Of a stretch of 64,000 nucleotides of DNA, positions 2,097 through 4,223 are shown piece by piece. The first letter of the stretch is position 1. Every line of letters starts with the position of its first letter. The DNA is taken from the NCBI GenBank assembly GCA_965655095.1, contig OZ296648.1:57412001-57476000 (forward strand), given 5' to 3'. Made by a program: the position numbers and the translations under genes. The notes under the pieces were generated by a model. The model did not search any database. It worked only from the letters and a program-made list of their open reading frames with translations, and was not told where the DNA came from. The stretch is from Haplodiscus bocki. Taxonomy: Eukaryota.

Positions 2097-4223
2097 TCAA
2101 ACAGGGGAAAGAACCCTAGTGGTGTGATGAACAATCGGATAAAGGTGCTGTTCCTTTTTCTTATTTTCATCTAGTGGATCTCTAGTCTCGTCTTCTATTC
2201 TTGTGGGCCTTGGTTCGGGTTCCAATGCTTGCAAAAGAGCAGCTTGGGGATTGAACATTGACGTTAGAGAAGACGTTAAAAATGAATTGTAAGAAGCGCT
2301 CAGGAGTGTCTTGCCAAATCCAAGCGATGCGCCAGTAAGACGGTTAATTTCCATGTGTCGTAAAATCATAAGTATGAGATCAACGATGAGCTTGATAAAC
2401 AGGAAGCTAGAGAAATTTATTCCACAAAATTCCAAGACATAGGCAACTGATCCAAACGTGTCCATAGACATAAAAGATTCTTGAAGTAGCTGGGGGAAAT
2501 CATGTTGTCCACATAGAAGTCTGTTCGATGAATTGCTGTGTTCGGGACAATGAGTTCTCGTGAGAATTTTTGCAAAGCTTTCCTTGAAGCAGCGCTGAGG
2601 AGGATATTGTCCCAGAATTCAGATAACTGTGCTCGTGTGTAGATTCCAGCATCTCCTGCTCCAGGAAAAGCTCTTCTGGATACTGGAGTTACATCTTTTG
2701 GTCCAAATACTGCTGGTCGTTTCCTGTGTTCTAGAGTAGGTGTAATAGTGAACCACGAGTTCTCATCTTCCATGTCAAACTGGAAGCGATTCTTAATCCG
2801 GTCAGAGCAATTTTGAACTTGAGCATCTGGGTATGTTTGTCGAGTGATTGGGTCGACGAAGAAGATTGCATTTTTGTAGAAGATAGGAATTTTATCATAA
2901 CATTGGTTCATTACGTGTGGTGCAGAACGCATCAAGGGACAGTGATATAGCCAAGCGAGGCTGACATCGGTACTGAGGAACATAGAGCGATTCCCAGTTA
3001 GCGTATAACCAGCTAAGCGTGGGTTTTCCATTGAAAGCGTCAGAAAAATTAATATTTGAGTTTTTTCTTGTTCGCATAAATTCTTTAAAAGTTGTATCTC
3101 AGAGCCTTTAAGCATCTTTGAGCTTTCGAAGAATAGATAATCCAGTTTTGTTCCTTGATGGAGTTCGTAGTCTACGTTGAGGTAATGAGGCGTTAGGATT
3201 ATCTGTATGGGGTGACTCAGGTTTGTGTACGAATAGTTAGCCGTCAGACGAAACTGAAGACTGGTAGTATTGTAGGTGTTGTGTTCCTCCTGAGAGTCCC
3301 CTTCTTTTTCTAGAAACCAGATCGAATCCACCAAAGTCGATAACTACGTATATTGAATCGTAGTTGGTTGGGTATACTTGTACTGGCTTGTTACAGAAAA
3401 CTTCGGGTTTCATTTTTACTTCGAACAGATACTGACTGGTGTTTTTTCGTCCACTGACAATATAGTAGTTGTTTTTTCCTTGTTTGATCTTGTTAACATC
3501 TTCTTTCCGATGAATAGCTAATACGCAATTGTCAAGGGCGTCCAATGTGTATGCGTAAGGGTCGAATGAGGTTGTGTCGCATCCAAGTTCTTCCAAAGGG
3601 CATGGTAATTGTAAACCATCTTTGCTCATAAAATTGCCATCTTTATTGCCTACTTTAGGCATGACGTCTTGTACATGACATTCGAATGTTTCGCGATTTA
3701 TCCATGCATATGGGTGGCATTCATTTCTGTATTTGTTGCTCCATCGTCATCAAAACCCTTGTGTTTAACTACCGTTGTTTTTACTTTTTTTCTTGATTTC
3801 GAGTGTCTCATCTTTTAAAGTGATTGAACCTCCTCTCGCTATGGTTCTGCATTGAGATGCTCTATCGGTGAACTATAATGTTATTCCTCCTGTATGATGG
3901 GCGTCCATGCTTGAATAGTCTCCAAAACCACAGTGCCATTGTTCACTCTAATATTTGACTCTACAAACTGTTGCGTTGATTTGTTGTCCAAAACGTTTTG
4001 TGTAAATCGTAATTTTTGCTCAGCTGACCTCTAGGTTTTCAGGAGCAATGTTGCGTTTTGAAACATGGTTTAAAGCGTTGTGGTTATTCTCTGTCATCTC
4101 TCCTCAGTCATAGTGTGTCACTTTGAGTTGGGAGGCTATTTTTTGCAAATCTGCGTTTTCAAGCTTGCCATTTGTGAAACTGGCTCAAATAATTAGAAAC
4201 AAGACCTGGTTTAATACATCCAT
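2097..4223 (-). pseudogene. env: Envelope glycoprotein, chuvirus-G-like (class III fusogen-type), disrupted
   Basis: ATG at 4223 with signal-like MDVLNQVLFLII; THYD.., VCRVKY..EQWHCG, SQCRT, CPLEELGC, LCEQEKTQIL, LYHCP...NQCYDKIPIFYKNAIFFVDPITR, GIYTRAQL, then a C-terminal TM (FLFIKLIVDLILMIL). Cys spacing matches chuvirus-type glycoproteins as recalled; split across several frames. Confidence 0.8.

Follow-up and report, generated by a model that had tools for sequence, protein, structure and literature searches.

The stretch at positions 2097–4223 (minus strand) of the window, by which we mean the whole 64,000 nucleotides of DNA analysed, is very probably the env gene of a Ty3/Gypsy LTR retrotransposon with an envelope (broadly, an errantivirus with a gB-type env), present here in an animal genome as a copy that is dead and rearranged. 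The encoded protein belongs to the class III fusion glycoproteins, a Gypsy-type pol lies upstream on the same strand behind one LTR and primer-binding site, and full-length env genes are present in many related copies. The parts of the element, in its own reading direction, are as follows:

13278–13590, minus strand: candidate 5′ LTR of 313 bp, TG...CA, with a near-perfect 10-base terminal inverted repeat (read from the sequence)
13258–13274, minus strand: primer-binding-site-like sequence, starting with TGG 3 bases past the LTR end (read from the sequence)
10219–11573, minus strand: gag, broken (Retrotrans_gag match below cut-off)
8926–10253, minus strand: 5′ part of pol, an aspartic protease region and then a TARG1/OARD1-like macrodomain (tblastn of full-length relatives)
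8140–8925, plus strand: N-terminal piece of the reverse transcriptase (RT), inverted relative to the element (residues 456–717 of the pol relative P0227 align on this strand)
6880–8134, minus strand: integrase core and C-terminal domain, broken (Pfam and tblastn)
5984–6547, plus strand: antisense ORF of 187 aa, no Pfam match (ORF list)
4591–5287, minus strand: a pair of small ORFs of 124 and 111 aa, overlapping each other, in the interval from integrase to env, no Pfam match (ORF list)
2097–4223, minus strand: env, coding for a class III fusion glycoprotein (PF24664) and disrupted by stops and two changes of frame
1342–2035, minus strand: Ser/Pro-rich ORF or ORFs 3′ of env, 1706–2035 and 1342–1923 (ORF list; colinear in the related locus L001)
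83–1345, minus strand: TRAF-like gene, probable coiled coil and MATH domain (Pfam, L001 and third-position bias)

The window contained no second copy of the candidate LTR, nor was there one between 13278 and base 1, and the 3′ LTR is expected beyond the left window edge. Depth was highest in the LTR bin in runs X1, X5 and X6 and the second-highest in X2, and in X1 106 loose ends fell at 13303, within the candidate LTR. The tables of elements and tRNAs in PMC13524379 do not contain the 9-mer complementary to the primer-binding-site-like sequence. A further high-depth repeat (13600–14600) lies upstream of the candidate LTR and adjoins an assembly gap of 200 N (14638–14837). The Pfam scan covered 20 of the 42 ORFs listed in window positions 1–16000. 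Within it, the Retrotrans_gag match on ORF 11139–11582 stayed below the cut-off (E = 1.4e-4, 22.5 bits versus 24.1), and we infer the 3′ end of gag from ORF 10219–10578, which has no Pfam match. The 1.7-kb leader between the primer-binding site and gag holds two similar-looking ORFs (111 and 157 aa; 11599–12335, minus strand) that have no Pfam match and are possibly a duplicated accessory gene. Matches to Colicin_V and Lentivirus_VIF in the window were below cut-off and were rejected.

The original prediction had assigned the element to Ty3/Gypsy and not to Bel/Pao, and the pol gene bears this out. P0227, which is 80% identical to the RT piece, carries protease, RT, RNase H, H2C2, rve, Integrase_p58_C and SH3_Tf2-1 in that order, and the surviving pol pieces in the window follow the same protease–RT–integrase order; since the order protease–RT–RNase H–integrase is also common to Bel/Pao, it is not diagnostic alone. 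On the window integrase, Pfam gave rve with E = 1e-9, Integrase_p58_C essentially at its cut-off (27.3 bits versus 27; 37 bits in P0227) and SH3_Tf2-1 below cut-off. When P0227 was compared with PDB sequences, Ty3 Gag-Pol came first among 30 matches (E = 7e-55), with the RTs of foamy virus and caulimovirus ranking below it and no Bel/Pao RT present in the list to compete. The families that we take to be Pao-specific (Peptidase_A17 PF05380, DUF5641 PF18701 and DUF1758/1759) were found neither on the 20 window ORFs scanned, nor on three pol relatives, nor among the precomputed domains of the best 120 of 213 RT relatives. The domain content thus supports a Ty3/Gypsy rather than a Bel/Pao element. 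Residues 718–1384 of P0227 have no match in the window, that is, ∼670 Pol residues (the rest of RT, RNase H and the integrase zinc finger) are missing. The inversion of the RT piece is coupled with this pol deletion of ∼2 kb in the window copy. In contigs from X1, X2 and X5, position 8139 is connected to 8921/8924 of the opposite strand, which means that other copies continue straight, uninverted.

The env gene runs from an ATG at 4223 to a stop at 2097, exactly the ends originally predicted, and its first frame is interrupted by eight stops within codons 1–328. P0084, a natural full-length env relative of 723 aa, aligned to the window in three pieces (4223–3177, 3193–2477 and 2495–2103, with 77, 89 and 77% identity, respectively), indicating two frame changes. 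The window copy is dead and can perform none of the functions proposed below. Its sequence features can still be recognised. The motifs CY.KIP, FVDPITR and GIYT, by which the gene had been noticed, and also TGNRS, each occur a single time in the six frames of the 64-kb window, and all lie in one frame. The noted cysteine pattern is likewise present, 12 of the 16 cysteines of P0084 being retained, and so is the C-terminal transmembrane segment: hydrophobic windows start at residues 606–622 of P0084, and the same stretch is found in ORF 2097–2618. The predicted signal peptide fared less evenly, as two of three env relatives (P0018 and P0009) passed the N-terminal hydropathy cut-off but P0084 did not, and in the window copy a stop in place of codon 13 interrupts the N-terminal hydrophobic stretch. 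No furin motif was present in any of the three relatives. We also tried ORF 4591–4926 as a counterpart of the long N-terminal extension of another env relative, P0329, and rejected it, as there was no match.

The middle piece of env matched the Pfam family PF24664 (Monjiviricetes_fusion) at 70.4 bits against a curated cut-off of 27 (E = 1e-19), whereas no match was obtained with just the 329 N-terminal codons. Six longer env relatives scored 83–151 bits, and the family was carried by all 75 longer env homologues; taken with the score of the window piece, this indicates that the similarity is not due to chance. A profile built from 40 longer homologues collected 3,484 representatives at E ≤ 0.001 and found none among PDB sequences. 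The AlphaFold2 monomer of P0084 was mediocre (pLDDT 62.5, pTM 0.33), with long strands and a central helix visible. In the comparison with class III fusogens by Foldseek that the original prediction had suggested, the top PDB match of this model was herpesvirus gB (E = 1e-11, TM 0.13; TM-scores to the PDB matches 0.12–0.16) and the top match in BFVD was the glycoprotein of Tacheng tick virus 4, a chuvirus (E = 2e-27, 17% identity). Close behind, within a few orders of E-value, came glycoproteins of xinmo-, chu- and qin-like viruses (13–15% identity). In VIA, all 50 rows listed for the P0084 model were gB, lyssavirus G, thogotovirus GP or GP64, with Z of 6.1–7.7 and high rmsd, values that lie within the range of common arrangements and are weak by themselves. 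In the Atlas, clusters of PF24664 came first (0.96), although the recognition value fell under the range that the Atlas treats as reliable. Profile similarity to the chuvirus-like family and structural similarity to class III proteins were both found, and the chuvirus-like character originally given to the glycoprotein stands. Homology and model together support a class III fusogen of the chuvirus-like (PF24664) family, with no particular viral donor. Another env cluster, that of P0058, is a distant family (42% identity to the window piece) whose members lie mostly on contigs of 12–14 kb, which is roughly as long as a complete element or a virus genome.

The original prediction offered two origins for this gene, an independent capture of a fusogen from negative-strand RNA viruses or a reservoir of the glycoprotein family in retroelements. 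The idea that a Gypsy lineage independently captured a jingchuviral glycoprotein, and did so relatively recently, would agree with the chuvirus protein at the top of the BFVD list, where chu-like viruses fill several of the first rows, and capture from chuviruses is the published reading for the mosquito BEL/Pao element Anakin in the accessible part of Dezordi 2020 (PMC7642597), repeated in that of PMC12440569. However, the eight best viral structure matches are only 13–17% identical and mix chu-, xinmo- and qin-related proteins, so that neither a donor nor a direction of transfer can be read from them; rhabdo-like glycoproteins score alike, and entomopoxvirus proteins follow lower down. In addition, the env family is deep, with its 3,484 representatives and only 25–26% identity between P0084 and its most distant full-length relatives. 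We therefore consider a recent capture unlikely. The reservoir reading is in line with the conclusion of Chary & Hayashi (eLife 2026, PMC13524379), who describe old retroelement-borne env lineages.

A further alternative would be that env and the TRAF-like gene form a separate mobile unit, or derive from an endogenous chuvirus element (EVE), that landed in or beside an env-less Gypsy copy. The integrase and env are separated by 2.7 kb with ORFs that lack a Pfam match, a gap wider than the 1-kb POL–ENV filter used in PMC13524379. Although all 30 bins were covered in each of four runs, depth dropped at 5845–6818 in each of them. Moreover, in the accessible part of PMC10084718 glycoprotein EVEs mostly adjoin fragmentary LTR elements, Gypsy fragments included. 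Among related loci, one was found in metagenome contigs (L001), and none in viral contigs or in prokaryote genomes. L001 lies on an independent contig and is colinear with the window from env to the TRAF-like gene (82% identity); it has no pol, as it begins inside env, and no single related locus retrieved spans both pol and env. Against a separate unit, the 20 ORFs scanned gave no Pfam match to a nucleoprotein or an L protein, and in X2 a single contig connects env (2884) with integrase (7209). Furthermore, when 105 env cluster entries were compared with 150 pol cluster entries, seven matched exactly in contig size versus 0.033 expected (from offsets), with no such matches between different env clusters or between different pol clusters. 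These matches involve four env and five pol families and none of the window's own (P0001 and P0203), and an identical contig size indicates a shared contig, not adjacency. In our view, a separate origin of the env–TRAF block is less probable still than a recent capture.

The env clusters have up to 1,758 members and several contain repeated full-length members, which shows that the copy number is very large and spread over many families. The 14 runs listed as carriers included no RNA run, which does not bear on expression. Differences between the window and L001 in the C-terminal part of env were distributed 18/14/47 over the three codon positions (p = 4e-6). In the TRAF-like gene they were 26/29/58 and 19/11/36, while the tested part of the Ser/Pro-rich ORF had no third-position bias (24/28/34, p = 0.41). 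The region intended as a neutral control (L001 1240–1430) had a third-position bias too (6/7/17, p = 0.025), but as part of an open frame it is probably coding and therefore invalid as a neutral control. Judged from these codon-position counts, env function was once under selection, and the TRAF-like gene appears to be under purifying selection. The same purifying signal between copies might be expected of a host fusogen gene domesticated from such an env, a reading that we regard as highly improbable given hundreds of copies in an element context and that is excluded for the window copy itself by its stops throughout.

As to how enveloped Gypsy elements of this kind have been described, the original prediction held that insect Gypsy elements use an F-type env, and it set a Gypsy element with a chuvirus-like env apart from the captures reported for Bel/Pao. 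The first premise is outdated, as PMC13524379 describes a hymenopteran Gypsy clade with both F-type and gB-type env, and the pairing itself is already in print there: the Chuviridae-like glycoprotein of mosquito BEL/Pao also occurs beside gypsy POL, with 221 gB-type entries among 1,512 elements. The accessible part of PMC10084718 (2023) gives no clear evidence of glycoprotein capture by Gypsy in arthropods, and the Gypsy–env claim is new relative to that text. The gB-type errantiviruses of PMC13524379 share with the window element a Ty3/Gypsy pol, a class III env downstream of it, connected by the authors with Chuviridae-like glycoproteins, the order gag–pol–env, multiple copies and great length (listed regions of 11.6–17.8 kb in 30 of 221 rows). 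They differ in host, the present lineage being apparently unsampled there (no matches for eight xenacoelomorph names in seven supplementary files), in the extra ORFs that the window element has between pol and env, and in cargo, as 'macro' and 'TRAF' do not occur in the main text whereas the window element has both. The motifs DPITR and TGNRS had no occurrences in the supplements, where the sequence rows examined span N-terminal domains only, so that this is uninformative. Anakin, as far as the accessible part of PMC7642597 describes it, is likewise an LTR retrotransposon with a chuvirus-like glycoprotein, but its carrier is BEL/Pao whereas RT and integrase of the window element are of Gypsy type. 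The glycoproteins of Jingchuvirales and of xinmo- and qin-like viruses, as well as herpesvirus gB, rhabdovirus G and GP64, have a Pfam family or fold class in common with the window env; however, identity is 7–17%, and the window env is part of an LTR element, with no match to an N or L gene among the 20 ORFs scanned around it. Finally, the planarian Burro elements combine Gypsy, env and a MATH/TRAF domain, which in one species is a separate accessory ORF, but in the part of PMC6431247 accessible to us the env is F-type and lies within a giant polyprotein, whereas the window has a free-standing class III env with the TRAF-like gene downstream.

The element carries two passenger genes beyond those of an enveloped retrotransposon. 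The macrodomain ORF (8947–9387, minus strand) lies inside Pol between protease and RT (Pfam Macro, E = 8e-7), and the matching region of P0227 resembles structures of human C6orf130/OARD1 (TARG1) with E = 8e-24. This domain is conserved among close relatives and has diverged more in distant families. We found no report of a macrodomain in a Gypsy Pol in the literature searched, which included the accessible parts of PMC6338049 and PMC4695847 and lay mostly outside subscription journals and Repbase reports; nor did we find a report of the element family itself in that literature, with most subscription journals likewise outside its coverage. The TRAF-like gene matched TRAF-mep_MATH in Pfam (E = 3e-9) and TRAF5 (E = 1e-5), and it lies 3′ of env also in L001 (1434–2462). 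In the window copy, part of the MATH domain has shifted to another frame, and an Atlas search with the TRAF ORF gave only coiled-coil matches, all under 0.8. The two genes may act on host defences, and a TARG1-like macrodomain in Pol together with a TRAF-like gene as cargo may be new. In the region of the antisense ORF, related contigs from X1, X2 and X5 cover 6084–6625.

A possible course of events in active copies would be as follows. Gag–Pol particles would be made, and the env protein would enter the secretory pathway, trimerise and be anchored by its C-terminal helix. Like gB, rhabdovirus G and GP64, it could then fuse the membrane of the particle or the cell with that of an adjacent cell. 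The element could thereby pass on, perhaps from soma to germline, in the way that Drosophila gypsy uses its F-type env. More speculatively, the TARG1-like macrodomain might remove ADP-ribose marks, and the TRAF-like protein might interfere with, or dampen, TRAF-dependent signalling. A bolder reading, which we put forward tentatively, is that the window copy represents an undescribed and deeply diversified clade of large enveloped Gypsy elements (∼16 kb when whole) in long-branch animals, probably acoels. Such elements would resemble complex viruses in combining a class III env with anti-defence accessory genes (a TARG1-like ADP-ribose eraser in Pol and a TRAF decoy after env), and their env lineage, rather than having been captured from chu-, xinmo- and qin-like RNA viruses, might be a sister group of the PF24664 glycoproteins of these viruses or the pool from which those proteins came.

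Because the pairing of Gypsy with such an env is already in print, the window copy adds a data point and not a concept. The host lineage, a long-branch animal, may be new as a carrier. The host of the window element is probably an acoel, and similar macrodomain-bearing gag-pol proteins and env proteins presumably occur in acoel genomes. If the host is an acoel, the element would extend the hosts of enveloped Gypsy elements of the gB type to a group so far missing, and it would bear on whether env acquisition predates the bilaterian split. The many full-length env relatives form a natural set with which to address the direction of class III fusogen transfer, from retroelements to negative-strand RNA viruses or the reverse. 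The macrodomain and the TRAF-like gene would gain interest as cargo if shown to act on host defence.

Elsewhere in the window, a THOC3 gene (41154–42158, minus strand) forms one uninterrupted ORF with 38–48% identity to all named proteins among the matches listed; in a tree of 30 rows, 29 of them picked from the best 120 matches, it sits on a long, unplaced branch among animals. Pieces of a TLC-domain (TRAM/LAG1/CLN8) host gene lie at 45184–46740 (minus strand; Pfam match on 45184–45774 only). ORF fragments at 48824–50869 (minus strand) resemble, by eye, a decayed non-LTR retrotransposon, with no Pfam match on the two scanned, and 33328–35103 is occupied by a tandem array of diverged units, each about 178 bases long.
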